A stretch of 61,859 bases of DNA from a virus (IMGVR_UViG_3300045120_000341:1-61859); one strand, 5' to 3'. Counted from the stretch's first letter, positions 7,558-61,859 are shown. A program made the numbers and translations. The notes: a model not told the origin generated them from the letters alone.

Positions 7558-7559
7558 GG

Positions 7560-12284: not shown

Positions 12285-12491
12285 ATGACTATCGAAGAAC
12301 TGGCGCAAGAGTTGGCGACACTGCGCGAGCGCGTCGAACATCTGGAAGGAATGGCGGAAAATATGCTAGGCAGTTGCGATGACTGCGGTAAGCCCGGAGA
12401 GTACCGAGAGAATCCCGCCTGGAACGCACTCCCCGGTGCCATGATTTGGATTTGCGACGAATGTTACGATGACATCTGCCAATCCAACTGA
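12285..12491 (+). CDS. Small coiled-coil + Zn-finger protein
   Basis: Strong RBS GGAGG; CDDC..CDEC. Confidence 0.65.
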   Translation: MTIEELAQELATLRERVEHLEGMAENMLGSCDDCGKPGEYRENPAWNALPGAMIWICDECYDDICQSN

Positions 12492-12518
12492 TTCCCGCGT
12501 CAACCCATAGGAACGACG

Positions 12519-12737
12519 ATGAGCACCTTGACCCAATCCGATATCGACTCGGCGAAACGCTGGGCTGCGGCCCACAAGTGGAAGCCCGTGACCAGCCCCC
12601 AGGTTCCCGGTAGTCTGTACGTCTACGCCCCGCTCATCCACTCCTGCGTGGGGATCGCGGAGAACGAGACGCAGATGTGGGAAATGCTGGCCAAGGCGCT
12701 GAAGGACATGCGGGCTGAGGTGGCGGAAGTTGCTTAG
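12519..12737 (+). CDS. Hypothetical protein
   Basis: RBS AGGA; operon packing. Confidence 0.55.
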   Translation: MSTLTQSDIDSAKRWAAAHKWKPVTSPQVPGSLYVYAPLIHSCVGIAENETQMWEMLAKALKDMRAEVAEVA

Positions 12738-12747
12738 GGGGGAGAGC

Positions 12748-13320
12748 ATGGCGGAGATACTGGTGGAACTTCACGACGGATCGATGCCGACCTTCATGCT
12801 GAGATCGGCTGCGAAGAATCGAGAGCACGTCTACATCTACGGCGTTGAGTACCAGCCCGTCCCGGAAGGCGACTCCCCCGCCCACGCGCTCGCCCGTACG
12901 ATCCTGTCCTCGCCCACGGTCGATGGCGTGGTGCTGGCCGCGATGCTGGACGCATGCCAGGAACAACTTGACATGTGCGGGGACGCGGGGAGGGAACGGG
13001 AGAGGGTGCTGGCGGAGGTGAAGGCGGCGCCGTATTGGTGCAAGGATCATCCTCTGTTTAACAAGCTGCGAGAGTTGGGCTATGGGGAAGCCGTTGACGC
13101 GGCTTGTTCTCAGGGAACGACAGCATCGGTTTTGGGTGGCGACGCGGCCGATGAGTACCTGAAGCCGGCAATGACCGACACCTTTACCGGAACTTTTGGG
13201 GCCGCGTTGAACGCTCACACTGGCGATGCCGGAGGGTATTGGTCAACTTGGAACCCGCGCGATGGAATATCAGACTTCACGCTCAACCCGTCTCCGCCGC
13301 CACCCGCTCCGCGAGTTTGA
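12748..13320 (+). CDS. Hypothetical protein
   Basis: RBS GGAG; converges on the integrase. Confidence 0.55.
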   Translation: MAEILVELHDGSMPTFMLRSAAKNREHVYIYGVEYQPVPEGDSPAHALARTILSSPTVDGVVLAAMLDACQEQLDMCGDAGRERERVLAEVKAAPYWCKDHPLFNKLRELGYGEAVDAACSQGTTASVLGGDAADEYLKPAMTDTFTGTFGAALNAHTGDAGGYWSTWNPRDGISDFTLNPSPPPPAPRV

Positions 13321-14368
13321 AATCGGCTTGGGCGTAGACCTCGGTAGTCTTCAGGTTGGCATGTCCAAGCACCGAACTCGCCGCCTCGATTCCGTAGGCC
13401 GCGCGGATCTCAGTAGCCCGTGCATGGCGGCACTGATAAACCGTGAACCGCTCAATTCCCGCCCGCTTACAGGCCCGCTTCAAGACCAGACCCAACGAGT
13501 TTCGGTTGTAGACCGTGCCGCGGCGATGCAGGAAGTACGGCGCCTCGCCCTCGACTCCACATTCCGCCAGCACAGCCTGCGCCTTCGGCCCGAACAGTAC
13601 CGCCCTGCCCTTCCCCCGCCCCGCGGTCTTGTGCCTCGCCGGCCGGTACGCCCAAACCGCGCCCGATCGCTTCAGGTCGCACGGACGCAGCCCGAACAAC
13701 TCAGACGGCCGCGCGCCGGTCAGCCGGAGAACGCGCAGCAGGCGCGAAGCAGGGGCCGTTAGAAACGGTAGCACCTTCTCAAGAACGTCATCGGGTACTG
13801 GAAGAACTTCGCGTGGTTCCCGAGCCATACCGGGACGTAATCCTCTGACGGTCATGAGAGCCTGCAACTGGCCTGGCTCGATCCGTTCGACCGAGACGCC
13901 CCAGCGGAAGATGGCGCGGACGATGCGGACCAGTTTGGCGACGTAGGAGCGGGTGTAGAGCGGCGACCTTTCCCCTTCTTTGCGACCTTTGACGACCTTT
14001 TCGGTACTTTCCCTATCCGCGAGCCCCCTCTGCCACGCCCCCAGCGCCAGTGGCCCGAACTCGCCCACCGGCGTGTCCTGGTGCACTTCCAGTAGCAACG
14101 CGATCGCCCGGGTAATCTGCACCCGCTCCCCGTCGGGGTACGGCCTTGCTCGCTGGTACGCCAGGCACAGCTCCGCCACGCTCATCGCCGTGGTGTCGAG
14201 GATCTGCGCCGTCGGGTCATTCGCCCACGTCAGACACAACCGGCGGTGCTTGCGATCGGCCTCAGGCGTACCTGCCCGGCCGCAGTCGTGCCACTTGCCC
14301 TGCCACTTGACGCGGGCACGGCCGGCGTGTGTATGCAGCTTCGGCGGGAAGGTGGCCTTGCGTGGCAT
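13283..14368 (-). CDS. int: Tyrosine integrase
   Basis: TGARPSEL (R), HKT (K), YQCRH, LGH, TTEVY (Y). Confidence 0.93.
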   Translation of the reverse strand: MPRKATFPPKLHTHAGRARVKWQGKWHDCGRAGTPEADRKHRRLCLTWANDPTAQILDTTAMSVAELCLAYQRARPYPDGERVQITRAIALLLEVHQDTPVGEFGPLALGAWQRGLADRESTEKVVKGRKEGERSPLYTRSYVAKLVRIVRAIFRWGVSVERIEPGQLQALMTVRGLRPGMAREPREVLPVPDDVLEKVLPFLTAPASRLLRVLRLTGARPSELFGLRPCDLKRSGAVWAYRPARHKTAGRGKGRAVLFGPKAQAVLAECGVEGEAPYFLHRRGTVYNRNSLGLVLKRACKRAGIERFTVYQCRHARATEIRAAYGIEAASSVLGHANLKTTEVYAQADFKLAERVAAETG

Positions 14369-19810: not shown

Positions 19811-22800
19811 ATGTCCAGCCCCGATGTCCTCGACGAGATCGAGCGGGCCGTCCGCGACGCTTATGCGAAGGGCCGGCGGGACGCCGTGGTCGGCCTGAAG
19901 ATCGCGGCGGAATTGAACGGTTCGCTGCCGTCGGTCTTGTCGGCCGTGGTCGACCCGTCCCGCGAAGAGCGAATCAACAAGGCGTACATCGAGTCGCAGC
20001 ATCCCCGCGACCGCACGGGACGATGGATCGACAAGGCGGACATTGACCGGCTCGCGCACTCGCCGGAAGGGGTCCAGCACCTGCTCGCCATTACCCGGCC
20101 GTCGGACCGGATGGCGATGGTGCGGGCGATCCAGGGCGCGCAGCAGTCGAAGCAGCACGGGATGCCGAACGTCGCGCAGCCGCGGAGCCCGGAGTCGGAG
20201 CACGTCGACGAACAGGGCGCGCCGGGTGAGCGTGGTTCGCCACAACTGGCGAAGACGATCGAGACAGTGGCCCAGGCCCAGAAGCTGATCGCGAACGTGA
20301 AGGAAGGGGCGATGCCGGGCGACCCGGCGCGTCTGGAGCGGATGCTCTCGAAGTTCTTCGAGGGCTTGCCGCCGAAGGTCGTGGACGAGTTCCGGCGTCA
20401 TGCGGGTACGCACGGCGGACATACGCCGGCGAGTCTGGCGAAGTGGGTCGCGGGCGGCGGCGATGTCGCGGGGCCGCCGAAGCCTGCGGCGTTGCCGAAG
20501 AAGCAGAAGGAAGACCCGTTCGGGATGAAGCCGGTCGCTGAGCGTGACAAGCCGTCGGGCAAGCCTGGTGACATGCGGCCGAACGAGGCGCTGGACGACT
20601 TTTTCAGCCGGCCGGCGGAGGCGGCGAAACCGAAAGATCAGCCCCTGCGGCATTCGCCCGACCTCGATGCGGCGATGGGCATGGGATCATCTCCCGCGGC
20701 TACGGGCAAGCCATCGAGTGAGGCGGAGCAGATCAAGGAGCGTGCTGCGGCGTGGCGAAAGAAACAGGCGGAAGAGGAAGCGGCGAAGACGCCCGCGGGG
20801 GCGGAGAAGCCGGCCCCGGAACCGCCGGCGGAAGAGGATAAGCCGAAGCCGACGCGGAAGCCGGTCGAGTTCGGCCCGTGGTCGCCGGACGACCTGCTCG
20901 AAGCCGCGAAGCCGTTGCGGAAAGAGATGGAGGATACGGCGCACGATCCGGAGTCGTTCGTGCGGGCGGCTCACGAGTACGGGACGTGGCTGAAGCAGTT
21001 CTCGCCGGATGAGTTGGATGGGCTGGCGAAGACGCTGGGTGTGGACGGTGCGAAGGGTCCCTTGGCGGTCCTGTCGTCGCGGCTGGCGGTGAAGGCGCTG
21101 GGCCGTGAGCATCCGGGCGAAGGGCATACTGGACTGGTTCGGACGGCGGACGGCGCGGAGACGAAGTATCAGGACGGCGCGGTCGTCACGCACACACCGG
21201 CGGGCGAAGAGAAGCCGGCCCCGACCCCGGAGCAGGCGCCGGCGGACAAGACGGCGGCACTCGACAAGGTCGTGCCGGCCGAACCGCCGCGGGGCGACGA
21301 GGGTTCGCCGGTCGGTGAGATCTCGAAGCACCTGCTGAACCCGAATTCGGCGATGCGGGATCAGGCGGCGGTACGGCAGCGATTGGCGACTCGGTTGAGC
21401 GATCCGGAGCACCTGGCGGCGGTGGCGAAGAAGGTGCTGGGTCGCAACGTCGCGGAACATCTGCCGGTGACGGAACAGCGGGACGTGTTGCTGGACAAGC
21501 TGGCTCGGTTCGCATCGGCGAAGGCGGAGGGGATTCACGGGAAGGTGGCGAAGCCGGCCCCGACCCCGCGTGAGGTGGCGGAACGGCTGAAGGAAGGCCA
21601 CGAGCGGCAGTCGCGTTGGTTGCGTGAATCGCAGGAGGGCAAAGGCCCGTTCGCGGGCAGCAACTTCAGCCAGAACGCGCTCGCTCAGAAGAACAACCGG
21701 GAGAGTCGGGCGTGGTTCGGCAAGCAGATGAAGGAGCACCTGAAGAAGAACCCGGAACTGGCGGCGGACTACGGGAAGTACGCGGGTGCGGAAGACGCGA
21801 ACCCGCCGGCGGCGAAGGAGACCGTAGAGCCGACCGCAAAGCGCCCGGTTCCGGGCCACAACGTCACGCAAACGCATATCGATGCGTGGAAGAAGCAGAT
21901 GCTGGATTTCAATTACTCCCCGGCGGAGGTGGACGAAGCAGAACGGATGGCAAAGAAGCGCGGCATTGATCCGACACGATCCGACGACCTTGAATCGCTC
22001 GATGCCTACATGACGTCGATTGAGAATTCCGCGAAGGAAGACCACGGGATGACGGACGCGGAGATCGAAGCGCATCCACAGTTGGAAACGCATGTCAAGC
22101 AGAAGGACGAAGAAGCTCGGCAGCGGGAGAAAGCGGCCGAGTCGAATCCCGCACCAACACCTCCCGCCCGCGAGCCCGGCGACGAGACCCCGGAATCCCT
22201 CGTCGGGCAACCTGACGAACCGAAACCATCTGGCGGCGTCACACTCGGCAAGGGCGAACCGGGCGGCAAGCGGATCGACGGTCGCCAACTGACGAAGCAC
22301 GTCATCTACGGCCCCGACGGCAAGGAGGGCGGGCACGTCAACGTCCACCAGTCCGGCGGGACGCTGCACGTCGACTGGGGCGGTCTGAAGGGCGCGGGGG
22401 CGACGGACAAGGAGGCGAAGGGCGCGGCGGGCGCGAAGAACGTCATCGGGGCGATTACGGCGCTGGCAAAGGAGTACCCGGACGCGGTGGCCGCGACGTG
22501 GACGCCGGCAGAGGGCCGGCTGAACGCGGGCGAAGCAAAATGGATGGACCTGGAGAAAGTGCGGCAGCGGGCCGCACGGGGTCAGGAACCGCCGGTGCCG
22601 TCGGAAGTCTCGCCGACCGCGGCTACGGAAGAGCACGCGCCGGGCGGTGAAGCTCCCGGCGTGACGGATACCGGGACACTGAAGCCGCGTCGGGGCGAGG
22701 GTGCGCTGACGGCCCGTCGGCAAGGCAAGAAGTTCGCGGTCCAGTGGGAGACGCCGGAGGGCGAGTTAAGGCACTCGCTGCACACGTCGGAGGAGGACGC

Positions 22801-24184
22801 GAAGCTCCAGCATGAAATCATGTCCCGTGATAAGGACGTCGCGCCGGGGACAGCGAAGATTATCAAGCCGGGCGAACTTAAGACCCCGCAGAAGAAGCGT
22901 GAGTACCTGTCGAAGAACCCGAAGATCCGGGCCGGTACGCTGGCCGACGCGGTCCGGCGGTACGGCGGTCTGGACCCAGACGCCTACGAGCGTACGTTCG
23001 GGTCGGTGAAGGAGGCGATCGAGAACGGGGTGCCGGCGAGCGTATTCAAGAACAAGCAGGGGAGCAAGGGGAATCAGCACCTCGATACGCTGGCAAAGGA
23101 ACTGAAGGAGACGGGCGATTTGTCGCAGCACGGCGACGACGTCCACGAGCATTATCACTTGATGGACGAGTTGACGGCGGGTAAATTAACACCGGAAGGT
23201 GCGGCGAGGCATCACGAGCAGTTGTTGCGGGACTTTGAACGGGAGCAGCAGGCGGCCCATGTCGAAGAACAGCGACGGAAAGACGAAGGACTCGACGTAC
23301 ACTCCCCCGCCGAGATTGGCGAGGCTGCATCTGGCGGCGAAGCGGCTGAAGGCGTTCGAGGCGAAGTTGGCGGCGCACCGGAAGGCGAAGGCGGAAAGCA
23401 AGTAGAGTCGGACACGTCCGGCGGTCAGAAGAATCTCCTCGTCGAAACACTCCCCAAGACGTTCACCGCGAACCGTGGCACTCAGTTGTCGCTCGACGAC
23501 GCGCACCGCGAGCGGGACCGTACGGGCGAGCCGCAGCCGGAGATGGGCACGGCGGCGGACATGGGGGCGGAAGACAAGGGGACGCTGTTCGCGCCGGAGA
23601 ACGCGGCACCGACTCCGGCCCTCGAACCTTGGCAACAAACCAAAGAGGAGTACGCCAAGACGTCCGGCAAGCGGCTCCCCGAGACGTTCAGCCACTTCCC
23701 CGAGCACCGTGAGTCGATCGCGGACGCGCTCAAGGCCGGCAAGCCGGTCCCGACGGAGGTCCGCACGCAATACCTGAAGGAACTCGCGCAGGAGGGCGCG
23801 AACGTACACGGCGGGACGCGCGGCAAGCCGCTCATGTCCGGGAGCGAGTTGCCGTCTGCTTCGGGGCCCGGCCCATCGCCCGGCCCGTACAACCTCAACC
23901 CGCGTCCCTTGTCGCCGCACCTGCTCATGGGCGAGGACACGCGGACGGCTCTAAGGGGGCTGGTCGACCCGCACGAGGTGAGCGGGAACCTGTTCCCGTA
24001 CAAGCAGGAGTTGCGTGACCTAGGTGGCCGGTACGACCGCAAGCGGCGGGTGTGGTACATACCGGGCGAGAGTGTGCCGAAGCTGACGGGCAAGGTCGCG
24101 GTGCGGCCTGTGTATGGGAAGCCGGACGTGGCGAAGTCCTTCGCGGCCGGCTATGCTGATCAGGTGGAGGCACTGACCGTATGA
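19811..24184 (+). CDS. Large polyvalent / internal virion protein (MuF position)
   Basis: 1457 aa between portal and protease; ESQHPRDRTGRW, PWQQTKEEY..GKPVP, GNAT-like segment, DUF5710-like C-terminus. Confidence 0.75.
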   Translation: MSSPDVLDEIERAVRDAYAKGRRDAVVGLKIAAELNGSLPSVLSAVVDPSREERINKAYIESQHPRDRTGRWIDKADIDRLAHSPEGVQHLLAITRPSDRMAMVRAIQGAQQSKQHGMPNVAQPRSPESEHVDEQGAPGERGSPQLAKTIETVAQAQKLIANVKEGAMPGDPARLERMLSKFFEGLPPKVVDEFRRHAGTHGGHTPASLAKWVAGGGDVAGPPKPAALPKKQKEDPFGMKPVAERDKPSGKPGDMRPNEALDDFFSRPAEAAKPKDQPLRHSPDLDAAMGMGSSPAATGKPSSEAEQIKERAAAWRKKQAEEEAAKTPAGAEKPAPEPPAEEDKPKPTRKPVEFGPWSPDDLLEAAKPLRKEMEDTAHDPESFVRAAHEYGTWLKQFSPDELDGLAKTLGVDGAKGPLAVLSSRLAVKALGREHPGEGHTGLVRTADGAETKYQDGAVVTHTPAGEEKPAPTPEQAPADKTAALDKVVPAEPPRGDEGSPVGEISKHLLNPNSAMRDQAAVRQRLATRLSDPEHLAAVAKKVLGRNVAEHLPVTEQRDVLLDKLARFASAKAEGIHGKVAKPAPTPREVAERLKEGHERQSRWLRESQEGKGPFAGSNFSQNALAQKNNRESRAWFGKQMKEHLKKNPELAADYGKYAGAEDANPPAAKETVEPTAKRPVPGHNVTQTHIDAWKKQMLDFNYSPAEVDEAERMAKKRGIDPTRSDDLESLDAYMTSIENSAKEDHGMTDAEIEAHPQLETHVKQKDEEARQREKAAESNPAPTPPAREPGDETPESLVGQPDEPKPSGGVTLGKGEPGGKRIDGRQLTKHVIYGPDGKEGGHVNVHQSGGTLHVDWGGLKGAGATDKEAKGAAGAKNVIGAITALAKEYPDAVAATWTPAEGRLNAGEAKWMDLEKVRQRAARGQEPPVPSEVSPTAATEEHAPGGEAPGVTDTGTLKPRRGEGALTARRQGKKFAVQWETPEGELRHSLHTSEEDAKLQHEIMSRDKDVAPGTAKIIKPGELKTPQKKREYLSKNPKIRAGTLADAVRRYGGLDPDAYERTFGSVKEAIENGVPASVFKNKQGSKGNQHLDTLAKELKETGDLSQHGDDVHEHYHLMDELTAGKLTPEGAARHHEQLLRDFEREQQAAHVEEQRRKDEGLDVHSPAEIGEAASGGEAAEGVRGEVGGAPEGEGGKQVESDTSGGQKNLLVETLPKTFTANRGTQLSLDDAHRERDRTGEPQPEMGTAADMGAEDKGTLFAPENAAPTPALEPWQQTKEEYAKTSGKRLPETFSHFPEHRESIADALKAGKPVPTEVRTQYLKELAQEGANVHGGTRGKPLMSGSELPSASGPGPSPGPYNLNPRPLSPHLLMGEDTRTALRGLVDPHEVSGNLFPYKQELRDLGGRYDRKRRVWYIPGESVPKLTGKVAVRPVYGKPDVAKSFAAGYADQVEALTV

Positions 24185-40301: not shown

Positions 40302-41798
40302 GTGGCGAACCCGAATCTAGTGGGCGGAATTGATGTACGCCAGACGGGGACCGCCCTCGTTATCGACGCCTTGTTACAGGACTCGTCGGGCGTCATCGTC
40401 ACCACGGGCACGACCACGGCCAAGCTGTACGAGGTGCAGTCTGATGGGACGCTGAAGAGTTTCGATTGGAGCGATTTTACTTTTAAGACGACGACCCTGA
40501 CCACCGAGACGCAGGCCCTGACGGTCCGTACGGGCAACAACGGGGCGACGAATACCGGCTACTGGTCCTTCGCCCTGACGACGCTCACCGGGTTCACCGT
40601 CAAGGCGACCTACCTCATACTCGTGGCCAATTCGGGAGCGTTCCCGCCGACGCAGATGCGCAAGTTCCAGTACGGCTCGGCGGAAGGCGACTTGGCGACC
40701 ACGGCGGTGTCTACGGGCGTGGCGGACATCAAAGCGGATGTAACCCTGCTCCTCGGGAACGTCTCAGGACTAACCGGGCTCTCCGCAATTGGTCTCGATT
40801 ACGGAAATCTCGGTTACTTGTCCGGGCCACCGGGATTCAATCCGCTCCGCACCAACACAGCAACGGCTGGCGGTGCCACCAGCATCACACTAGACGCCGC
40901 CTCCTCGGCCGTGACGGATTTCTATAAGGGTTGTCTGGTCTTCGTCACAAGCGGCACCGGCTCGGGGCAGTACCGGATTATCACGGCTTACAACGGGACG
41001 ACGAAGGTTGCGACCGTCTCTCCGGCGTGGGCGGTGAATCCGGCGAACGGAAGCGGATTTGCCGTCTTGCCTAGCGGCTTGACGGACACGGCATCTATCA
41101 ATGGCGTCTCGACCTCCTCCGTTACCGTGGTTGCGGCCAATCTCGGGACGACTCAGCCGGTGAACTTCACGGGGACTGGGTCCAGTGCGATGGTGAAGTC
41201 CGATATGCAGGTCGCGGGTGGCGATGTCAACTCGGGGATTGGATTGGCGAACCTGGGGAATGACTATTTTGCTGACGGACACGTCAATGCTGACCTGAAT
41301 TTTATTGTCGGCACCGCCCTCACCGAAGGCGTCGCCGGCCAACTCGCGGGCGGGTTCGTCCATTGGTTCGACGTTGCTTCCCCGTCCGGCACGGTCAACA
41401 GCTTGCCGAATGCGCCGCCCGCCCAGTCGAACGGTCTCCTGACGATGGGTATCAACAGCGGGAATATCCAGTTCTCGGGGACGTGGACTCAGGTCGGGAT
41501 TCAGACAATCGGGGCGCTTACTGTCACCGGGGCGGTTACCGCGAGCAATGCCCTGAACGCTATCGCTGTCGGCACGACCGAACGGACCGCGATCGCCGCC
41601 GCGTGGGGCGCGTCGATCATCGGCAACAGCCGGACGCGGGATATGTTCCTGCAAGGGCTGACGAACAAGATCGCTTTCGACGTGCCGGGCATTGGCCAGT
41701 ACACGCTGTTTTCAACCGACGATACGACGCCCTTAAAAATCGGCACGTACACGGCGAGCGTCGGCGCATCGCCCGTGATTGTCCTCGACCCGAGTTAG
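40302..41798 (+). CDS. Virion fibre/structural protein
   Basis: Thr/Gly-rich; DFYKG..GTGSGQYR.I..Y.G.TK.AT module. Confidence 0.65.
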   Translation: MANPNLVGGIDVRQTGTALVIDALLQDSSGVIVTTGTTTAKLYEVQSDGTLKSFDWSDFTFKTTTLTTETQALTVRTGNNGATNTGYWSFALTTLTGFTVKATYLILVANSGAFPPTQMRKFQYGSAEGDLATTAVSTGVADIKADVTLLLGNVSGLTGLSAIGLDYGNLGYLSGPPGFNPLRTNTATAGGATSITLDAASSAVTDFYKGCLVFVTSGTGSGQYRIITAYNGTTKVATVSPAWAVNPANGSGFAVLPSGLTDTASINGVSTSSVTVVAANLGTTQPVNFTGTGSSAMVKSDMQVAGGDVNSGIGLANLGNDYFADGHVNADLNFIVGTALTEGVAGQLAGGFVHWFDVASPSGTVNSLPNAPPAQSNGLLTMGINSGNIQFSGTWTQVGIQTIGALTVTGAVTASNALNAIAVGTTERTAIAAAWGASIIGNSRTRDMFLQGLTNKIAFDVPGIGQYTLFSTDDTTPLKIGTYTASVGASPVIVLDPS

Positions 41799-41805
41799 GT
41801 GACTC

Positions 41806-41943
41806 ATGTTTCGCTGGATGGCTTATCGGCTGCTGTTGATGTTCGGCGGTGGAGGTGGCAGTCCACCGCCCACGAACGCCGTCTGTGCCGACGCCGGTCT
41901 GATAGGCCGTGTCGACGCGACCGCCGGACTCCTGGAGTGTTAG
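41806..41943 (+). CDS. 45-aa hypothetical virion protein
   Basis: RBS AGGTGA; fills the gap between neighbours. Confidence 0.45.
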   Translation: MFRWMAYRLLLMFGGGGGSPPPTNAVCADAGLIGRVDATAGLLEC

Positions 41944-41944
41944 C

Positions 41945-42253
41945 GTGAACCTGTGGATTGGTGCGGACCGGACGGTGTTCTACACGGGTGCCCGCGACGC
42001 CGTGACACAGATCGTATTGGCCACGGGAACGTGTAGTTGGACCCTCAAGGATTCGGGCGGCAACTCGCTCGGGACGGGCGCCATGTCCGACGCCGTGACG
42101 GGCGGCGACTACTACGGAACGATCGATGCCGCGCTGACGACGACACTCACCGAGTTTGCGGCGTACACGGTGGAGATCACGTTCGCGTACATGACTTACA
42201 ACGATTTCCGGGTGCTGGAGTGCATCGCCGTTTACCGGGGGGCGACGTGCTGA
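41945..42253 (+). CDS. Ig-like (BppU-like) structural protein
   Basis: Beta-sandwich pattern G.Y.G.I..Y.VEITF. Confidence 0.55.
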   Translation: MNLWIGADRTVFYTGARDAVTQIVLATGTCSWTLKDSGGNSLGTGAMSDAVTGGDYYGTIDAALTTTLTEFAAYTVEITFAYMTYNDFRVLECIAVYRGATC

Positions 42254-42492
42254 CCGAATACCAGCCAGAGGAAAGATTCACGGTCAAGGACGGGGAACTG
42301 ATTGCCTGTGTGCTCTGCTGGGCGGCGATATTCGTGTTGGTGATGTTGGCGAGCGGTCCTGAACTGCCGGACATGATGACGCTGGCGGAATAGGGGGAGG
42401 ACATGGCCGAGAAAACCGTGGAGCTGTATGGCGGCCCGCGGCTTTGCACGAGAATCGGGGGTTGAACGAAAATCCCCGATCCTGAACGAAAA

Positions 42493-42999
42493 TTACTCTT
42501 TCTTCGGATCGACTTGCTGCGTTGGCTGAGCCTTTGGCTTTTCTCTGACGAGAAAGGGGAAATGCTGCCGCCAAGGCCACTCCTCCTGACCGGCTCTTCT
42601 CAATCTGGCTTCAATGACGTGAGATCCTAGCTCGGTGAATCCGGGCAGATCAACCTCTGGAATATAGAGTCTGTGAAGCTGCTTGTCGCCGAACGAAAAA
42701 GGGAATACGGGCGTGTGAAAGAGGCGTGCTCCATTTGGAGTTTCACAAACAACTTCTGTTTCAAATAGGTCGTCGTCCGCCTCGCCATCCTCTCTCATCC
42801 ACGTAGCTACTAAGCGATATGGATTTGTCTTTCTCACGATAACTGGATTGGGGGTCTGGGAGATATCCTCGCTCTTCCCGGTAATTTCGGCGGCTTTTAA
42901 TACGTCGATTGATTCCAAAATGTCGAACATGCTTACTTTATTTGTGTGCTGGTCAACAGACCCAGATTCTGCGAATAGGACGTAAACAGGGCGGGCCAT
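42493..42999 (-). CDS. DUF6941-like beta-sandwich protein, third gene of the TA operon
   Basis: LFAE..SVD..TNKVS.FDI..E and L..F...G.H.I..L pattern; 1 nt from the antitoxin stop. Confidence 0.6.
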   Translation of the reverse strand: MARPVYVLFAESGSVDQHTNKVSMFDILESIDVLKAAEITGKSEDISQTPNPVIVRKTNPYRLVATWMREDGEADDDLFETEVVCETPNGARLFHTPVFPFSFGDKQLHRLYIPEVDLPGFTELGSHVIEARLRRAGQEEWPWRQHFPFLVREKPKAQPTQQVDPKKE

Positions 43000-43000
43000 A

Positions 43001-43612
43001 TCACAGACCCCCATTTGCGGCGACCAGTAAGATATCCGACGATTCGGGGCCTGGAAATCTTGTGACCTGCGGCATTGCTGGCTGAATCGCGATACTAGAC
43101 GCTCCTGTGAGCGTGTATGTCGGCTGATCTACGTTTACCGGGTCGAAGATCACAAAGGCGCTCGTCATTGTCTTCTCAGGCTGCTCGGTCGCGCCAAGAG
43201 GATTGGCTAGGAATCTTCTAAACTCCGGCACTCGGAAGAACGCTCGAAGCATCCGATCCAAGTGCAGTTGCTGAATCTGCTTTCCGGTCTCCCATCGAGA
43301 GATAGTTTCGGATGCAATCCCAAGATCTCTTGCAAGCTTCTCTTGCGTAAGACCAAGAGCATCCCGCCCATTGCGGATCTCGCTAGGCAACAGCAGACCA
43401 ACAACGATCCTAAATTCGCGATAAACTCGCGTCATTGACTCATCGGGTACAACAAGCGCACCGCAACTTTGGCACTTGAGAACCGACAAGTCCTTGACTT
43501 CAACAGGATAAGACTTGCCGTCATGCTCCATCTCAGTGCGATAGTCAATTACGACAGGATTTAGAGCCTGCTGACCGCATTGACGGCATTTGCGTGGGAA
43601 AGGTTTAGCCAC
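43001..43612 (-). CDS. mqsA: MqsA-like antitoxin (Zn ribbon + XRE HTH) with C-terminal extension
   Basis: CRQC..CQSC, LLLPSEIR..R..LGLTQ..LA..LG....ISRWETG..Q; about 65 aa extra tail. Confidence 0.85.
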   Translation of the reverse strand: MAKPFPRKCRQCGQQALNPVVIDYRTEMEHDGKSYPVEVKDLSVLKCQSCGALVVPDESMTRVYREFRIVVGLLLPSEIRNGRDALGLTQEKLARDLGIASETISRWETGKQIQQLHLDRMLRAFFRVPEFRRFLANPLGATEQPEKTMTSAFVIFDPVNVDQPTYTLTGASSIAIQPAMPQVTRFPGPESSDILLVAANGGL

Positions 43613-43634
43613 CGTTATGTCCTTTTATTGCTCA

Positions 43635-44018
43635 TCAAGGGATATGAGGGTGAGCATTTAAAAGGCTTACTTCAGGCTCGTCTTCATCCGGGTTAGAAAT
43701 CTCCATGTAAACGTAGAGGCCGTCCCTGAACTCTCTCAGACCGGTAATAGTGATGTCGTAGTGCTTGTGCCTCTTATCTCGCCAGTTAGGTCGCGTTTCG
43801 TCCACACACTTGATTCTTCCACCGGTGTTTATCCATTCCCTCGCGAGATCGAGTATGAGTCCAGATGTAAAACCTTGATTAGCTGGGTTGGTGGTTACTA
43901 ACTGTGCAGCCTCAGGTGAAACCCAGTCAAAGTCGGTGCGACACCAAGAGGCTGCTGCCTTTACAATCAAGTCCTCCCGGCAATCGGGAGTATCAACCTT
44001 GTCTGTCGAATGAGGCAC
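43635..44018 (-). CDS. MqsR/RelE-like toxin
   Basis: Directly upstream of the MqsA-like gene; C-terminal LYVY....V.LLNAH. Confidence 0.6.
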   Translation of the reverse strand: MPHSTDKVDTPDCREDLIVKAAASWCRTDFDWVSPEAAQLVTTNPANQGFTSGLILDLAREWINTGGRIKCVDETRPNWRDKRHKHYDITITGLREFRDGLYVYMEISNPDEDEPEVSLLNAHPHIP

Positions 44019-44182
44019 CCGAACATCCTAAATAATACCCACAAACTGACTTACGTCAAGACGTCTAGATTGAATGGCACAAGTTGTCTGAGCATAGGGT
44101 TTTATATCAAGCAAAAATAGGCGCGAACCCTTTCTAGATTGCTTGTGTCCGTCTCCGTTCGGTCATTCTGGCGGCAATTAGA

Positions 44183-44401
44183 TTAAGAAGTTATCAGGAA
44201 GGAAACGGGGCGGCCAACGCGCTCTAGTTCTTCGCGCGAGACCCTCCGCAACCGATCCCTGATCCATTCACTCGTCTTCTTGCCATCCATCTCGGCCGCG
44301 CTCTGGAATGCTTCCTTTTCCGCAGAGTTAAGGCGGATTTGAATGGTTTCGAGTTTCTTCGCCGCGGCAGCCTTTCGAGGCCGTCCAATTTTCTTCCTCA
44401 T
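44183..44401 (-). CDS. Ribbon-helix-helix regulator
   Basis: GRP..IQIRLN..EK..F..AA...G...SEWIR; divergent from the transposase. Confidence 0.8.
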   Translation of the reverse strand: MRKKIGRPRKAAAAKKLETIQIRLNSAEKEAFQSAAEMDGKKTSEWIRDRLRRVSREELERVGRPVSFLITS

Positions 44402-44407
44402 AACGGG

Positions 44408-44478
44408 AGGATACCCGTGAAATATTTTCCGTCAAGACAAAAACCATACTTGACAGTGCGAGTTATTGTCATTACATT
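44408..44478. promoter_or_regulatory. Divergent sigma70-type promoters for the RHH gene and transposase
   Basis: Plus strand TTGACA(44450)-17-TACATT; minus strand TTGACG(44435)-16-TATCCT, 6 nt before the RHH ATG. Confidence 0.65.
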
Positions 44479-44501
44479 AAACGTACCTAAAGAGGTACGC
44501 A

Positions 44502-45746
44502 ATGAACACCCGAGAAGAACGCGGAATCGTGATCGCGGCACTGTCCAAGCTGACTTTCCAGAACGGGACCTGGGTCGTGCCGAGTCAGTCGGGCGACAAG
44601 AAGTACGTTGTTGATCCGGGGAAGAAAACCTGCACCTGTCCGGACCACAAGGAAACAGGGTTTGTTTGCAAGCATCAATTTGCGGTTCAGTTCGTACTGA
44701 AACGCGAAGAGTCATCGGATGGCACTGTGAGAGAACAGCGGACGTTCACCTTCACTGAGAAGAAGGTCTATAAGCGGAACTGGTCGGCCTACAACGAAGG
44801 CCAAGCCACTGAGAAAGCGCGCTTTCAAGAATTGCTATGCGATCTCTGCCGGGGCGTTGAGGAACCGGCCCCGAAGAACGACAGACCCCGCCGCCCTCCG
44901 ATACCGCTGGCCGACCGCGTGTTCGGCGTTACGTTCAAAGCGTATTCGACCCTCAGTTCCCGCCGGTTCGCCACCGACCTGAACGAAGCCCATGACAAAG
45001 GCTATCTGTCGCGGCCGATGCACTACAGCAACCTGAACGCCTTCCTAGAAAAAGAAGACATTACTCCGGTTCTGAAATCGCTGATCGCCCGGAGTGCGGC
45101 CCCGCTCCGTTCGCTCGAATCGACTTTCGCCGTCGATAGTTCCGGCTTCACGGCTTCCAAGTTCGTCCGCTGGTACGACATGAAGTACGGCCGGGACCGG
45201 ACCGAACACGATTGGGTTAAGGTCCACGTCGCCACCGGGACGAAGACGAACATTGTGACCGCCGCAGCGATCTACGGCCGGGACGCGGCCGACGCCCCGA
45301 TCCTGCCGGAACTGGTGAACGAGACGAACAAAACGTTTGCGATGACCGAAGTGTCCGCAGACAAGGGATACCTGTCAGTCGAGAACGTGGAAACGATCTT
45401 CGCCGTGGGCGCTACGCCGTTCATTGCTTTCAAATCGAACAGCACCGGGGCGTCGGGCGGTTTGTTCCAGAAGATGTTCCACTACTACCAGTTCAACCAG
45501 AAGGAGTACATGGACCGTTATCACAAGCGGTCGAACGTCGAAAGCACGTTCTCGATGGTCAAACGGAAATTCGGCGACTCGCTTCGGGCGAAGACGAAAA
45601 CTGCGATGGTTAATGAAGTGTACTGCAAGCTGCTTGCACACAACCTCTGCCAAGTCATCCAGAGCCAAACCGAACTCGGGATCGAATCAGTTTTCTGGCC
45701 GGAAGCGTCTGGACCGGCTCGGCAACTCAGCCTTCACCATGCCTAG
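44502..45746 (+). CDS. tnp: SWIM Zn finger + DDE transposase (IS5/IS4-like)
   Basis: CTCPD..CKH SWIM; AVDSSG, KVH, ADKGY, YHKRSNVE. Confidence 0.9.
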   Translation: MNTREERGIVIAALSKLTFQNGTWVVPSQSGDKKYVVDPGKKTCTCPDHKETGFVCKHQFAVQFVLKREESSDGTVREQRTFTFTEKKVYKRNWSAYNEGQATEKARFQELLCDLCRGVEEPAPKNDRPRRPPIPLADRVFGVTFKAYSTLSSRRFATDLNEAHDKGYLSRPMHYSNLNAFLEKEDITPVLKSLIARSAAPLRSLESTFAVDSSGFTASKFVRWYDMKYGRDRTEHDWVKVHVATGTKTNIVTAAAIYGRDAADAPILPELVNETNKTFAMTEVSADKGYLSVENVETIFAVGATPFIAFKSNSTGASGGLFQKMFHYYQFNQKEYMDRYHKRSNVESTFSMVKRKFGDSLRAKTKTAMVNEVYCKLLAHNLCQVIQSQTELGIESVFWPEASGPARQLSLHHA

Positions 45747-45928
45747 CTTGCATAGATGGATGTGCAGGTATAAAACAAAGGGGACCGGCTCCGCCAAGAG
45801 TACCGGTCCCCTGAATGCGAGTGATGCTGAACGCGGTAATTTTACCGCTCCGTACCCGGTGCGTCAACGCCCCGGTGGCCGGGCATGCCTCGCGTTGGAC
45901 CCTTTCTGGTTCAAGGAGGTATTGCTCA

Positions 45929-46192
45929 ATGTCTGACAAAGCAGGGGAGAACGCCCCATCGACACCGCCTCCAACGCCAATCTCAGTGCCGCCACCAGTA
46001 CCGCACCCGACTCCAACGGAACAGCGCCCACTGAGGGAACACTTCCAAGCCGAACACCCACCGTTACCGTTTCAGGTGGACCCTGCTCAAATCATCCCGA
46101 TCACTCCAGTGGACCCGATAGGGCCAGTAAGGAAATCAGGCACGAGCCCACCACCTCCGGACATGCCACCGATAGGGAAGAAGAGGTTCTGA
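45929..46192 (+). CDS. Proline-rich small protein
   Basis: RBS AAGGAGGT before the ATG; Pro-rich and likely disordered. Confidence 0.55.
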   Translation: MSDKAGENAPSTPPPTPISVPPPVPHPTPTEQRPLREHFQAEHPPLPFQVDPAQIIPITPVDPIGPVRKSGTSPPPPDMPPIGKKRF

Positions 46193-46203
46193 ACCTTGCG
46201 CAT

Positions 46204-46869
46204 TTGTCAGAAGAGTGGCGGGAAGCAATTACTACTGACGAGGGGTGCAGGGCGGCCTATAGGTTTCTGTTAACCTTCACGCCTCAGTACGGAGTCGAAT
46301 ACGATTGGGTAATCAAGCACGCCAAGGAGCAGTACGCGGTTGCTGATACGACGTTCAAGGGGATCGACGATAAGGCCCTGACAATTATCAACTATTTAGG
46401 AGGCGGCGCAGGCCTCCTAACGCTTGGTTCAGTTGCGGGACTGGCCGTCGATAAAGTTAGCGAGTGGGTTGTTCTGTCCACACTTCCGTCTTTTGTGGCT
46501 GCTGTTATTGCAATTGTCTACGCTAAGAAGGTGCGAAATCCGTGCTGCTTCGGCTATCCGCCAACGGTCTCTACGGCCTGTCGAGCAACGAGAGAGTTTG
46601 TTGACGCGAAATGCGCTGAAGCATCTACGATTAGACAGTGGGAGCTGTCCTCGGCGATGATTCGCAAAGCAGTAAACGACAAGCAAAGGCTGCTCCGAAA
46701 TGCAACTATGGCTTTGATGTGGGCGATCATTCTTTTGGCGGGGCCAATGTTGGCCGGTGTCATTGAGAAATTTTGCACGTCACCACCAGAGGCAAGACCA
46801 GTACAACTCGCACCAATCGAAGTCAAACGCCTGCCCGTTGAACTCGAAATCAAACCCTTTACTCGCTAA
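46204..46869 (+). CDS. 3-TM protein resembling the Pycsar effector (PycTM) architecture
   Basis: IDDKA+TM1, TM2+P, K...L..A+TM3. Confidence 0.55.
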   Translation: MSEEWREAITTDEGCRAAYRFLLTFTPQYGVEYDWVIKHAKEQYAVADTTFKGIDDKALTIINYLGGGAGLLTLGSVAGLAVDKVSEWVVLSTLPSFVAAVIAIVYAKKVRNPCCFGYPPTVSTACRATREFVDAKCAEASTIRQWELSSAMIRKAVNDKQRLLRNATMALMWAIILLAGPMLAGVIEKFCTSPPEARPVQLAPIEVKRLPVELEIKPFTR

Positions 46870-47113
46870 ACGAGAATCCCCTTGGCTGAACGAGAATCAC
46901 CCAGTTTCGGTCGATTTTCGTGCAAAGCCGGCGGCCCGCTGGACGGCGAGAAGCGGCCCCGGACGCCATATCTGAACCGCGGATACACCGGTCCGTGGCG
47001 AAGCAGGCAGGAGTTCTACATCTTCGACGGCGAAGACCGCTTTGTCTGGTCCGGCACGCTGGAGGGGCATCTGATACAGGCGGAAGTCGAATCCAAAAAA
47101 CGGGGAGGGGCTA

Positions 47114-47240
47114 ATGGGTGAAAAGATCGCGAGTCTGGTTCTTTCGCTGCTCGCGGGTGTGGCACTCGCGGCCGACCCGCCGGGCCTATCTGTCGCCGGC
47201 AGCGAACCGCAAGTCGCACAAGTCGCGGGCGGTCTAAACG
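47114..47240 (+). pseudogene. Orphaned original 5' end of gene 47905..48711
   Basis: Signal peptide + ADPPGLSVAGSEPQVAQ versus ADTPGLMVAGSEPQAAQ downstream. Confidence 0.75.
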
Positions 47241-47791
47241 ACATGCGCCCACTTTTTCCTCTCAATGGCATCGGTGATTGTTTTGCGAGTCACGCCATAG
47301 AGACGGGCAAGGCGCGAAGTGCATTGTCGGGTGCCCATGTGCATGGCACGAATCTCCCGCACCTTATCGTCATTCAATTTGGCTCTCCCGCTTCGAGTTC
47401 CGTGGCAGATAGTGCCGTGAACGATTCTGTCGGCAGAGTTTTCTTTAAGGGTTCCCCATTGCAGATTTTCAACCCGATTATTGGAGGGGTTACGATCCGG
47501 ATAGTGTCGGCAAATCATTCCCTCTGGACACGGACCAACGAACGCCAAGAGAACGAGTTGATGAACGAGGTGGCCTTTCCTGTCGGTGGAAAGCTCTACT
47601 TTCATGTAACCGTCTCGGTCTCTGCGAGGATTCAATCTTTTCCATTTAGTTCCAATAACGGTACGAGCCCCTTTGTGGAATCCGCGACTCGCTTTAGCCA
47701 AACAAGACCACACGCTGCCATCGTCGCCGACGCTGTAGCCGGGGAATCCCGGGATGTCTCGGTACTCAACAGTAGAATCGAATTCGGGCAT
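47234..47791 (-). CDS. NUMOD4-HNH homing endonuclease
   Basis: RDIPGFPGYSV..G.V.S; VHQLV..AF.GP..CRH..NPSNNRVENL.W; AKL HTH. Confidence 0.9.
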   Translation of the reverse strand: MPEFDSTVEYRDIPGFPGYSVGDDGSVWSCLAKASRGFHKGARTVIGTKWKRLNPRRDRDGYMKVELSTDRKGHLVHQLVLLAFVGPCPEGMICRHYPDRNPSNNRVENLQWGTLKENSADRIVHGTICHGTRSGRAKLNDDKVREIRAMHMGTRQCTSRLARLYGVTRKTITDAIERKKWAHVV

Positions 47792-47793
47792 GA

Positions 47794-47868
47794 CCTGCGC
47801 CTCCAACGCGGGTTGTGTCAAGAGCGGAGTGAGGGCGTAGGAACCCTCACTCCGCTTGCATTTTAACA
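47794..47868 (-). promoter_or_regulatory. Extended -10 plus two hairpins in the HNH leader
   Basis: TGTTAAAAT; perfect 13-bp stem 47823-35/47844-56; second stem with GGAGG in its loop. Confidence 0.65.
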
Positions 47869-47904
47869 GGGGTACATTTGCGCGCAAGACTTACGGAGGG
47901 CAGA

Positions 47905-48711
47905 ATGAAGAAGATGATTTTCCTTTTCTGTCTTGTGATGGTTTCGAGAGCTTCCGGTGCGGATACGCCGGGTCTAATGGTGGCCGGTTCTGAGCCGCAG
48001 GCGGCACAGGCAGCAACCGGCGTGACAGTGAGTGCCGGCCGATTCGTTCCGTTGACCATCGCTCAGGGGAAGCCTGCTTTAGTTCTTGGCAACGACGCCG
48101 GCCTCTTGGAGATGTTTCAACTTCCCGCCGGCCATTCCATCATTGGCGTTCTCTACTCGGAACCGGCCGGCGCAAAATCTAAGCGCTACGTTTTTCCAAG
48201 TGGGCCGGTCACGATTGCGATTGCCGGTGACGTGGGTGGGGTCGTGAAGCTGTCGGCCGTGGTGAACGGTGCCAGTGCGGCGGACGCGCCGACGGTGGCC
48301 GGGACGCTGGTGGTGACGCTGACGGCTCCGTTGCCGCCGCCCGGACCTGGACCCGGACCGGACCCGCCTCCACCGCCGCCGCCGGTTGTCAAGTCGTTCC
48401 GGGTTATCTGGGTCACGGAATCGGCGACGACTCTGACCGCTCAGCAGAATTCAGTCATCGGGGCGAAGGCGATCCGGGACTACCTGACGGCGAAGACGAC
48501 GCCCGAAAACAACGTGGCCGGTTGGCGACACTTCGACCCGCAGACAGTGCCGAGCGGACAGCCGACCATGACGGCACTTTGGGCTGCAGCAAAACCGAAG
48601 ATCACAACGGTTCCCTGTCTCGTCGTCGAAGTGAACGGCAAGGCGGAAATTCTACCGTTCCCGGCAAACGCAGTGGAAGCTTTGGCGACCCTCAAAACTT
48701 ACGGAGGCTGA
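47905..48711 (+). CDS. Secreted protein with Pro linker and thioredoxin-like C-domain
   Basis: Signal peptide, PPPGPGPGPDPPPPPP linker, VPCLVV..LPFP. Confidence 0.7.
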   Translation: MKKMIFLFCLVMVSRASGADTPGLMVAGSEPQAAQAATGVTVSAGRFVPLTIAQGKPALVLGNDAGLLEMFQLPAGHSIIGVLYSEPAGAKSKRYVFPSGPVTIAIAGDVGGVVKLSAVVNGASAADAPTVAGTLVVTLTAPLPPPGPGPGPDPPPPPPPVVKSFRVIWVTESATTLTAQQNSVIGAKAIRDYLTAKTTPENNVAGWRHFDPQTVPSGQPTMTALWAAAKPKITTVPCLVVEVNGKAEILPFPANAVEALATLKTYGG

Positions 48712-61215: not shown

Positions 61216-61848
61216 TCAGAAGGGTAGCGCCTGCGTCGTTCGATTACGAACGATCGGGAGGGAAGGTACTCCCGAGTTTCCGCCGGTAGTGGGTCTTCTG
61301 AGCAATGTCTGTGGCCCGCACCCGTCGTCGGACACGAAACGAATCGGCCCCGGTTCGGGGGACGTGCAACCGCCGGGGGCGGATAACTCCGCCTCGGCGG
61401 CCTTCGCGTCCTCTTCCCCGAGCTTCGCCGCGTCCTTCTCCCAGTCGAGCCACTTGGGGATCATGCCGAACCGCGCCATATCGACGCAGCACGGGTCGAA
61501 CGCCGGGAGAGTCACAGGTCCGGCCTTCGCCAGCCTGTCGGCCTCTTCGACGCCCTGGGGGCCTTTCTGGGCCACCCAAGCCAAAGCCGCGGTGATCCCC
61601 GCCGCGGCCCACGGGAAGGTGACTGTGAGGGCTTTGTTCGCCAGGGTCTGGGCACGAAGAAGACGAGCTAATGACGGAGGACCCATCCGCCAGAACCAGT
61701 CGACGCCGGGAGTTGCATACCCGGCGCAGATTTGGTCGACGAATGGATCCCCGCCAGAGGCACCATGATATCCCCGCTGAGCGGCAGAAACAGAGTGCAG
61801 GCTCGGATTGGCCCAGAATGAAGAACAGGGAACCCACAACAGTATCAC
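61216..61848 (-). CDS. Hypothetical protein
   Basis: AAGGAGG near the start; first gene downstream of the putative ori. Confidence 0.5.
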   Translation of the reverse strand: MILLWVPCSSFWANPSLHSVSAAQRGYHGASGGDPFVDQICAGYATPGVDWFWRMGPPSLARLLRAQTLANKALTVTFPWAAAGITAALAWVAQKGPQGVEEADRLAKAGPVTLPAFDPCCVDMARFGMIPKWLDWEKDAAKLGEEDAKAAEAELSAPGGCTSPEPGPIRFVSDDGCGPQTLLRRPTTGGNSGVPSLPIVRNRTTQALPF

Positions 61849-61859
61849 CCTCCTTGAAA
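61733..61859. repeat. Terminal direct repeat (circular assembly overlap), copy 2
   Basis: Identical to 1-127. Confidence 0.95.

Follow-up and report, generated by a model that had tools for sequence, protein, structure and literature searches.

The window analysed here is the whole virus record IMGVR_UViG_3300045120_000341 of IMG/VR (61,859 nucleotides), and this report concerns its segment 42440–46929, which is a single-transposase cargo transposon inserted cleanly in a small open reading frame (ORF) of a soil phage. The element is 4,490 bp long, is bounded by terminal inverted repeats (TIRs) of 18 bp, which start with GGCTTTG and agree at 17 of 18 positions, and is flanked by a direct duplication with 10/10 identity between its copies (8 bp if a C/G pair is added to each arm). 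One transposase gene lies inside, accompanied by 5–6 other ORFs. The features of the locus are as follows, with the strand in brackets.

42404–42439 (+): 5′ part of the interrupted phage ORF, 12 codons; its ATG at 42404 is in frame with 46940–47121 after excision
42430–42439 (no strand): left copy of the target-site duplication, GGCGGCCCGC, read directly and the same as 46930–46939
42440–42457 (+): left inverted repeat (IRL), GGCTTTGCACGAGAATCG, matching the right one at 17/18 positions
42462–42495 (+): left end, subterminal: the terminal 12-nt word again in two direct copies, TTGAACGAAAATC and CTGAACGAAAATT
42493–43014 (−): p173, third gene of the left operon, overlapping the antitoxin-like gene by 14 nt
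43001–43612 (−): MqsA-family antitoxin-like protein with a CxxC...CxxC zinc ribbon and HTH_3 (NCBIfam and Pfam)
43635–44018 (−): p127, first gene of the operon and candidate cognate toxin, upstream of the MqsA-like gene (complex model)
44032–44059 (−): promoter-like site before the p127 operon, TTGACG-16-TATTAT, a consensus match only
44183–44401 (−): small ribbon–helix–helix (RHH) protein of CopG/RelB type, probable regulator, divergent from the transposase
44408–44478 (no strand): back-to-back promoter-like sites in the 100-bp RHH–transposase intergenic region, consensus matches only
44502–45746 (+): transposase, 414 aa, SWIM zinc finger (CxC-x9-CxH, residues 44–58) and DDE_Tnp_1 (Pfam)
45815–46192 (+): Pro-rich ORF, 125 aa (87 aa from ATG 45929), doubtful coding, codon-position base composition flat
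46204–46869 (+): p221, 221 aa, all-helical membrane-type protein directed at the right end, with remote PycTM homology
46869–46900 (+): two subterminal inverted word copies, AACGAGAATC twice on the plus strand, right end
46912–46929 (−): right inverted repeat (IRR), whose reverse complement is GGCTTTGCACGAAAATCG (repeat search and direct reading)
46930–46939 (no strand): right copy of the target-site duplication (direct reading)
46940–47121 (+): 3′ part of the interrupted phage ORF, with the frame ending at 47121

The top inverted pair among the 83 found by a repeat search of 41500–48000 was 42433–42457/46912–46936 (25 nt, 88%). In-silico excision of the element together with one copy of the duplication yielded a single ORF of 72 codons, and because the frame of ATG 42404 and the frame ending at 47121 join across the duplication copies, the two parts are regarded as one ORF split by the insertion. 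The inverted repeats, the perfect flanking duplication, and the cleanly reconstructable split gene, all claimed in the initial annotation, were borne out. The guanine-plus-cytosine (GC) content of the element is 53.0%, as compared with 62.2% in the rest of the record; by part, it is 49.9% in the left cargo bay, 56.8% in the transposase gene, and 54.4% in the right bay. In the probable source run, the region lies complete on a single contig whose depth is uniformly 18, with neither joints nor loose ends at the element boundaries, and an assembly chimera was rejected on these grounds. A composite transposon was also rejected, since the transposase gene and the element each occur once in the record, in place of two flanking copies of an insertion sequence (IS). 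Transporter ISs (tISs), which the initial annotation had cited as precedent, are indeed a recognised category (PMC9330008, PMC10132070), described in the consulted parts of these sources as IS-type elements with one transposase, TIRs, and extra ORFs unrelated to transposition. The present element shows the features of a tIS or small unit transposon, i.e., one transposase, and TIRs plus a duplication that enclose passenger genes, and it differs from a compact IS (~1.05 kb, with the transposase as the sole gene) in its length and its further ORFs.

Transposase, terminal words, and related elements

The transposase matched DDE_Tnp_1 (PF01609) with 75.7 bits (cut-off, 23; E = 5.5e-21), and its SWIM finger scored 18.6 bits, just below the Pfam cut-off of 19.6; PF04434 (SWIM) is present in many homologues. 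In an alignment of 28 homologues, C44, C46, H58, D212, D287, Y340, R343, E347, and K354 do not vary, and C56 is conserved to at least 90%, giving the signatures CxC...CxH and Y-x2-R-x3-E-x6-K. The best NCBIfam model was IS5_2 (NF033579; 111.7 bits, under the cut-off of 140). The protein collection contained more than 6,672 relatives, the best being 76% identical; their sources name them "transposase" and no more. The nearest annotated proteins in 72,556 plasmids were transposases of the IS5 family, mostly ISRhba5-like, with 25–27% identity over residues 93–381 only, and 50,697 phage records gave distant IS5 matches only, in Vibrio phages. ISRhba5 is a tight IS of about 1,056 bp with ~37% identity to IS903. 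An annotated IS903-family copy (1,057 bp; 9-bp duplication) has ends that match at 18/18 positions, GGCTTTGTTGAATAAATC, and the statement of the initial annotation that IS903 ends share the GGCTTTG start holds for this copy. The identity between the window transposase and IS903 is 22–25% and limited to the catalytic region. Judging from these matches, the transposase belongs to a large, distant IS903-like branch of the IS5 family with an extra N-terminal SWIM finger; the element as a whole is taken to be IS903-like by its catalytic domain, end sequence, and duplication length, which is 10 bp (or 8 bp) in the window and 9 bp in the IS903-family copy.

The alignment of the 28 homologues was used to retrieve 80 genome loci, in which ends were called by an arm rule (GGCTTTG core with ≤1 mismatch and arms of ≥13/18, on either side of the transposase gene) and a duplication rule (8–10 bp, ≤1 mismatch). 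A TIR pair with a duplication was present in 51 of the 80 loci. The duplication is 9 bp long in 39 of these elements, 10 bp in 11, and 8 bp in one, and is perfect in 48; the elements range from 2,327 to 6,173 bp (median, 3,776 bp), with the left end 634–3,860 bp upstream of the transposase start and the right end ≤150 bp past the stop codon in 19 elements, others having it as far as 2,757 bp away. Homologues with TIRs tight around the transposase gene, which the initial annotation had named as evidence that would speak against its proposal, were looked for and occurred in 0 of the 51 duplication-supported genome elements, 634 bp being the smallest left flank. Similarly, in short metagenome contigs the left end was not found within 190–570 bp upstream of the transposase start, and the right ends, where present, were mostly 50–110 bp after the stop codon. 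One genome has four copies that are 99.9–100% identical over 3,414 bp, with the identity stopping exactly at the TIRs; because such near-identical copies end at the TIRs, the cargo-laden units appear to move whole.

Several related loci deserve separate description. In L063 and L064, which are two of the four near-identical copies, an extra 431 bp (3472–3902) starts with a second left-end-like sequence (GACTTTGCACCATGAAAG), and a 9-bp duplication brackets the longer L063 unit; an end lying farther out can thus be used, enlarging the mobile unit. G001, the 9.1-Mb planctomycete genome that contains L060, has about a dozen full-length transposase genes of the family, and the identical scores at three of its places point to a recent multiplication. 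In IMG/VR, a scan with the TIR pattern gave two matches (L002 and L003), both by chance and without homology to the element, and a scan with the single transposase protein found nothing; the alignment query retrieved 22 loci, including 14 duplication-supported elements of 2.0–4.4 kb, 13 of them distinct, on contigs that may include host flanks. At 5872–7886 of one of the IMG/VR loci (L147) lies a unit of 2,015 bp with TIRs matching at 17/18 positions, a perfect 9-bp duplication, an 81-aa transposase remnant, and two cargo ORFs, which resembles a non-autonomous carrier of cargo.

Positions 5–16 of each end form a 12-nt word that recurs inside both ends. Among 52 elements, direct copies start at position 23 of the left end in 36 and at position 43 in 27, and inverted copies at position 33 of the right end in 26 (six more being one base off) and at position 53 in 15 (eight more within two bases), as compared with a background of 3.7e-4 for each position and orientation. 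The sequence of the word is element-specific, and all the copies within an element change together. The window element conforms to this layout, with the terminal repeat and two copies ~20 bp apart at each end. We infer that the subterminal words would be extra transposase-binding sites making the two ends functionally different. In L039 and L069, the word layout of the ends is reversed relative to the transposase gene, and because of these reversed layouts the core is suggested to sit in either orientation between the ends.

The initial annotation took the RHH and transposase genes as a fixed core. Both are present in the window, where the RHH protein matched DUF6290 (28.1 bits; cut-off, 27); among relatives, a hidden Markov model derived from the RHH protein detected, in 26 of the 78 genome loci with enough upstream sequence, a divergent homologue that precedes the transposase gene by 20–180 bp. 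The trait is patchy on the transposase tree, with at least six changes, and a constant RHH core was consequently rejected. In other subgroups, an HTH_3 protein or family-less small ORFs fill the place of the RHH gene, and a slot for a small regulator may be general in the family. Of the promoter-like sites between the two genes, the minus-strand site spans 44435–44408 (9/12) and the plus-strand site 44450–44478 (TTGACA-17-TACATT; 10/12). A 28-nt near-repeat with 71% identity immediately precedes both the p127 operon (44035–44062) and the RHH gene (44411–44438), and in both places it overlaps a promoter-like site; the two units may have a promoter or operator in common.

Payload of the window element and cargo of its relatives

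The left bay contains three overlapping or adjacent minus-strand genes directed at the left end, which the initial annotation described as a three-gene toxin–antitoxin operon. The product of the middle gene passed the MqsA-family model (TIGR03830, 66.6 bits; cut-off, 61.8) and PF15731 (MqsA_antitoxin, 31.2 bits; cut-off, 30) and also matched HTH_3 (38.2 bits), with C9, C12, C47, and C50 invariant in three copies. These three genes recur, with order and orientation kept, beside the left end of the element of L060 and of a second element in L071, with identities across the three elements of 28–42% for p127, 36–40% for the MqsA-like protein, and 31–38% for p173, which is conserved at the same position. 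The second L071 element (~9872–13218), carrying this p173-/MqsA-/p127-like operon, directly follows the first and has a left end without the exact GGCTTTGC motif. For p173, no match in Pfam, NCBIfam, or PADLOC and no relatives in a word-index search were obtained. For p127, no direct family match was obtained in Pfam, NCBIfam, or PADLOC, all sequence matches in the PDB had E > 0.9, and relatives were present in only 2 of 401 Planctomycetota genomes; a genome search with PF15723 matched nowhere, including the controls, and is hence uninformative. An Atlas feature search gave no more than a lead, an MqsR cluster with a score of 0.89 at rank 12.

Toxin genes lie upstream of the antitoxin genes in mqsRA, and the structure of the MqsR–MqsA complex has been solved. 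We built a complex model of residues 1–140 of the MqsA-like protein with p127 on our own three-row alignments, and it scored 0.84, as compared with 0.26 for the best control. Among solved complexes, 58 of 80 scored at this level, as did 2 of 110 mismatched pairs; the runs agreed in at least 92% of the contacts, and the partner had a predicted local distance difference test (pLDDT) value of at least 82. The interface predicted by the model involves residues 26–31, 52–64, and 100–115 of chain 1. The model supports but does not show the binding of p127 to the MqsA-like protein, and the operon is read as a toxin–antitoxin-type module plus the third component p173. The earlier description stands for the antitoxin-like member, which passed the MqsA-family model; its partner p127 is predicted to bind it and has no MqsR match.

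For p221, the protein of the right bay, 340 relatives were obtained at E ≤ 0.001; the word-index search returned only p221 itself. In the Atlas feature search, PycTM clusters made up 7 of the 30 matches (score, 0.92). For a comparison of profiles, 17 PF18967 proteins were gathered from 16 of the 401 Planctomycetota genomes, and hhalign aligned the p221 family with them over 150 columns (probability, 94.2%; E = 1.1e-7; score, 54.1, with reversed or shuffled controls at ≤16.9); the positions that both families conserve (D-x-K-A, R, and K) coincide in this alignment. The alignment-based AlphaFold2 model of p221 is all-helical with a pLDDT of 94.4 (41 for the single-sequence fold), and no fold match to this model was found in the PDB or BFVD at E ≤ 0.001. 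Phage_holin_3_6 matched weakly in 2 of 116 p221 relatives (best E, 0.0026). In the consulted part of PMC13069673, PycTM is a known family of defence effectors, and a typical Pycsar system pairs it with the cyclase PycC. As far as profile comparison can tell, p221 is a stand-alone distant relative of PycTM and not a Pycsar system, because no cyclase is present in the record; the label "PycTM-like" given in the initial annotation holds as remote homology. The Pro-rich ORF, located between the transposase and p221 genes, has no family match and no coding signal (GC at the three codon positions, 0.60/0.58/0.60). The picture of lower-GC passengers pointing outward on both sides accordingly applies to the left operon and p221, the bays being at 49.9% and 54.4% as compared with 62.2%, and is doubtful for the Pro-rich ORF.

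Cargo was then compared across the 51 elements and the window, in which a home-made GC-frame heuristic called 225 non-transposase ORFs of ≥55 aa. Clustering of the cargo ORFs together with the transposases gave 186 clusters, 166 of which are singletons. The sister pairs L076/L080, L042/L051, and L060/L071 have only three blocks of DNA in common, namely the left end (50–108 bp, 80–98% identity), the transposase block (1.2–1.35 kb, 85–88%), and the right end (47–69 bp, 85–98%), and the sequence between these blocks is unrelated. Because only the ends and the transposase block are common to the sisters, each element is considered to have two cargo bays.

Among 219 cargo ORFs, 150 (≥90 aa, minus one near-duplicate) were scanned, yielding 45 Pfam families at E ≤ 1e-4 and 216 PADLOC models. 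The families include N6_Mtase and HTH_3 (four members each), Eco57I and SocA_Panacea (two each), and DNA_methylase, NotI, MethyltransfD12, HSDR_N_2, PIN, and Peptidase_M78 (one each). Non-defence cargo is represented by the arsenic-resistance-type families HTH_5 (ArsR), LMWPc, and SBF, in 1 of 150 ORFs each in a tally pooled over elements, and protein kinase, LRAT, C-type lectin, and ISL3 transposase families were also found; the ISL3 transposase could be a nested IS. The top PADLOC models were methyltransferases and endonucleases of types I, II, and IIG (4–5 members each), and such single-model matches are not system calls. As a control, 150 ORFs drawn at random from 383 flank ORFs (≥90 aa) matched 217 Pfam families, the majority of them housekeeping, and 129 PADLOC models, largely those for kinases and ATPases. 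The 35 cargo ORFs (≥75 aa) of the IMG/VR elements included BglII endonuclease, N6_N4_Mtase (two), N6_Mtase (three), Eco57I (two), and HSDR_N_2 (two), as well as Mrr_cat, Gp49, and helix–turn–helix (HTH) domains. By these family matches, the nameable cargo is dominated by restriction–modification and toxin–antitoxin functions; the larger part of the cargo matches no family, and a portion of it is plainly outside defence. The exchangeable anti-phage cargo proposed in the initial annotation is therefore upheld in its variability (166 of 186 clusters being singletons) and in the dominance of these two functions, and is qualified by the non-defence members and by the comparison with flanks, which sets list against list, is not statistical, and is suggestive of enrichment.

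Carrier phage and alternative readings

The window is a whole IMG/VR virus record that encodes primase, helicase, large terminase, portal, major head, and tail spike proteins, and has a tyrosine integrase gene at 13283–14368 (Phage_integrase, 44.1 bits; cut-off, 27.1). Because structural and packaging genes are encoded together with an integrase, a temperate tailed phage, as the initial annotation assumed for the carrier, is a fair reading. The phage host is probably a planctomycete, because the window transposase belongs to a well-supported clade of 20 Planctomycetota rows, with the GC content in agreement. The insertion is in a late or accessory region, downstream of tail-fibre-like genes and beside an HNH endonuclease gene. 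This gene, of the HNH_3/NUMOD4 homing type (47234–47887, minus strand), is ~300 bp from the insertion site in a stretch with a GC content of 52–54% (62% otherwise), and may be a second mobile gene of the same accessory region. Elsewhere in the record, a 1,457-aa ORF between the portal and head genes (19811–24184, plus strand) has no PHROG match at E ≤ 0.001, and positions 1–127 and 61733–61859 form an exact terminal repeat of 127 bp. The contig of the source run has 61,762 bases, ~97 fewer than the record, which agrees with an overlap left by the assembler in a circular sequence, as opposed to terminal repeats that are physically there.

Empty-site relatives of the phage, for which the initial annotation proposed a search, were found by none of four routes. 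The neighbour proteins (41909–42253 and 47878–48711) gave no insertion-free relative, the 3′ part of the split ORF had no relative in INPHARED or IMG/VR, and the large terminase as bait gave best matches that were partial, with 26–44% identity only. The probable source run was the only run that contained the stretch, and its contigs had the occupied form only; assembly drops rare variants, so an empty site may still exist.

The structural reading, namely a cargo transposon of 4,490 bp with one IS903-like SWIM-DDE transposase and three-word ends, is held with a probability of roughly 0.8. In the mechanism that we propose, the transposase would bind the three words at each end, form an asymmetric complex, and move everything between the ends, the SWIM finger being the candidate for recognising the words, and the divergent RHH protein would repress the back-to-back promoters. 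Cargo would be exchanged when co-resident elements recombine in the stretches that they conserve (the ends and the transposase block) or, alternatively, via the use of a more distal end. The operon and p221 would act as abortive-infection or exclusion-type functions, or would stabilise the element in a lysogen. Several observations weigh against parts of this reading. The IS5_2 and SWIM scores of the window transposase both fall short of the curated cut-offs, 29 of the 80 genome loci lack a duplication-supported call (12 with a TIR pair only and 17 with no pair, mostly at contig ends), and the heuristic ORF calling in relatives makes the cargo counts approximate. As to the payload, p127 has no MqsR match (no PF15723 at E ≤ 0.1), and the complex score, obtained from three-row alignments, may reflect a likeness to the solved MqsR–MqsA complex. 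A direct Pfam match to PycTM occurred in 0 of the 116 p221 family members, no PADLOC model matched p221, and the class III cyclase (PF00211) is absent from the 61.9-kb record at E ≤ 0.01, where 4 of 14 control genomes were matched. Finally, the insertion is clean as claimed, and no empty site or insertion-free phage relative was found, so that "recent" refers to the perfect duplication only.

A defence function of the payload is conceivable and is put forward tentatively, somewhat below an even chance, and that the element "arms" the phage would follow by inference. The payload may instead be selfish, the operon being an addiction module through which the transposon, or the prophage carrying it, is stabilised, as has been proposed for toxin–antitoxin passengers of Tn3-family transposons, and the two-transmembrane protein having an unrelated membrane role, which we hold to be rather unlikely. 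It would agree with the outcome of the PADLOC screen proposed by the initial annotation, in which the window payload had no match beyond generic HTH, with a PycTM-like protein that lacks a cyclase partner, and with the operon travelling with related transposases in three elements, which fits co-selection; toxin–antitoxin pairs are recognised as transposon passengers in the consulted part of PMC9330008, where they are established for Tn3-family transposons. It agrees less well with the nameable cargo of relatives, which is mostly restriction–modification and thus defence rather than addiction in the narrow sense, and with the PycTM family, whose members are known defence effectors (PMC13069673, as far as consulted); stabilisation and abortive infection are, moreover, compatible with each other. 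That the payload serves the phage itself, as a moron-type gain comprising a holin-like or superinfection-exclusion two-transmembrane protein and an HTH/zinc-ribbon phage regulator, is considered improbable: these genes lie inside transposon ends at a GC content lower than that of the phage, the left operon recurs in the bacterial chromosomal elements of L060 and L071 and not in phage contexts, and the holin matches in 2 of 116 relatives are marginal, with the p221 model matching no phage structure in BFVD, even though the insertion is located in a late or accessory region beside the HNH endonuclease gene and 13 distinct further IMG/VR contigs have members of the family.

There is very little likelihood that the 4.5-kb unit is accidental, i.e., an ordinary small IS along with adjoining DNA that moved on a single occasion through a fortuitous outer end, or an assembly chimera. 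End-switching does occur in the family, as the distal left end of L063 and L064 adds 431 bp, and metagenome assemblies can be chimeric; on the other hand, no inner left end is present near the transposase in the window or in the 51 elements, both ends have the full three-word architecture with the same element-specific word, and the left operon is at the same place in the L060 element, to which the even contig of depth 18, the perfect duplication, and the restored ORF are added.

Significance and comparison with known systems

Single-transposase ISs are usually regarded as cargo-free, and the mobility of defence genes is mostly credited to large elements, such as Tn7-like transposons, integrative and conjugative elements, prophages, and satellites. 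The element described here is a small IS5-type element in a family where cargo is the rule, with turnover between near-identical transposases, and the defence-type genes (restriction–modification, toxin–antitoxin, and a PycTM-like effector) recur in the chromosomes of bacteria as well as in 13 or more other distinct viral contigs. In the literature, no IS5/IS903-type family was found that combines a SWIM transposase, obligatory cargo, two bays, and triple-word asymmetric ends, ISfinder and TnCentral being outside the scope of this search, so that a prior name is possible; the family is apparently large and undescribed. As a broader proposal, which we advance with less than even confidence, the SWIM-DDE elements may constitute an unrecognised, phylum-spanning class of minimal cargo-bay elements, each with one IS903-like transposase, triple-word asymmetric ends specific to the element, and two bays open to free exchange, and a main vehicle for restriction–modification, toxin–antitoxin, and effector genes among soil Planctomycetota, Acidobacteriota, Verrucomicrobiota, Alphaproteobacteria, and their phages, in which the SWIM finger would read the word code against cross-mobilisation of co-resident elements. 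If the functions are true, phages of poorly studied soil phyla would have a simple route to gain host-type immunity genes. The compact ends (~60 bp each) and one protein make an attractive minimal cargo-delivery system to study, and the co-varying word triplets offer a direct handle on left/right and self/non-self discrimination in IS5-type elements.

Among known systems, the window family shares with the IS903 group a single DDE_Tnp_1 transposase with the Y-x2-R-x3-E-x6-K signature, GGCTTTG ends, and the 9-bp duplication, seen in the IS903 reference and in most relatives of the window element. It differs from that group in an extra N-terminal region of ~90–130 aa with the SWIM finger, in a length of 2.3–6.2 kb with passengers rather than 1.05 kb, and in ends made of three asymmetric word copies rather than a plain 18-bp repeat; the duplication of the window element itself is 10 bp (or 8 bp if read otherwise). 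The SWIM finger is located differently in the proteins of Mutator-like elements (MULEs), which are eukaryotic, and PIF/Harbinger is a eukaryotic relative of IS5. SWIM fingers are present in MULE transposases according to the source portions consulted, and the comparison made here is at the level of this motif.

With regard to the payload, the left operon resembles MqsRA in the MqsA-like zinc ribbon and HTH, in the candidate toxin gene being upstream, and in the predicted binding, and differs in that p127 is outside the MqsR family, that p173 is a third, translationally overlapping gene, and that the MqsA-like protein has an extra C-terminal tail of ~70 aa. p221 and the PycTM of Pycsar are both helical membrane proteins of similar size with a 150-column profile match, whereas p221 is without a direct Pfam or PADLOC match and without an adjacent or record-wide cyclase.

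As for elements that carry cargo, the ends of Tn7 contain several transposase-binding repeats in an asymmetric layout, as in the window family. Tn7-like elements encode the multi-protein TnsA/B/C machinery and targeting proteins and are much larger, whereas the window family has one IS5-type transposase in 2–6 kb. Both are platforms for highly variable cargo including defence systems, as described for Tn7-like transposons in the consulted part of Benler et al. 2021 (PMC8649781). The tISs of the IS1202 family (tISKpn21, tISKpn65, and tISRel10) are likewise single-transposase TIR elements carrying unrelated ORFs. In the source portions consulted, these are occasional members with a single extra ORF among plain ISs, whereas in the window family every delimited member has cargo, with two bays and turnover between close relatives.

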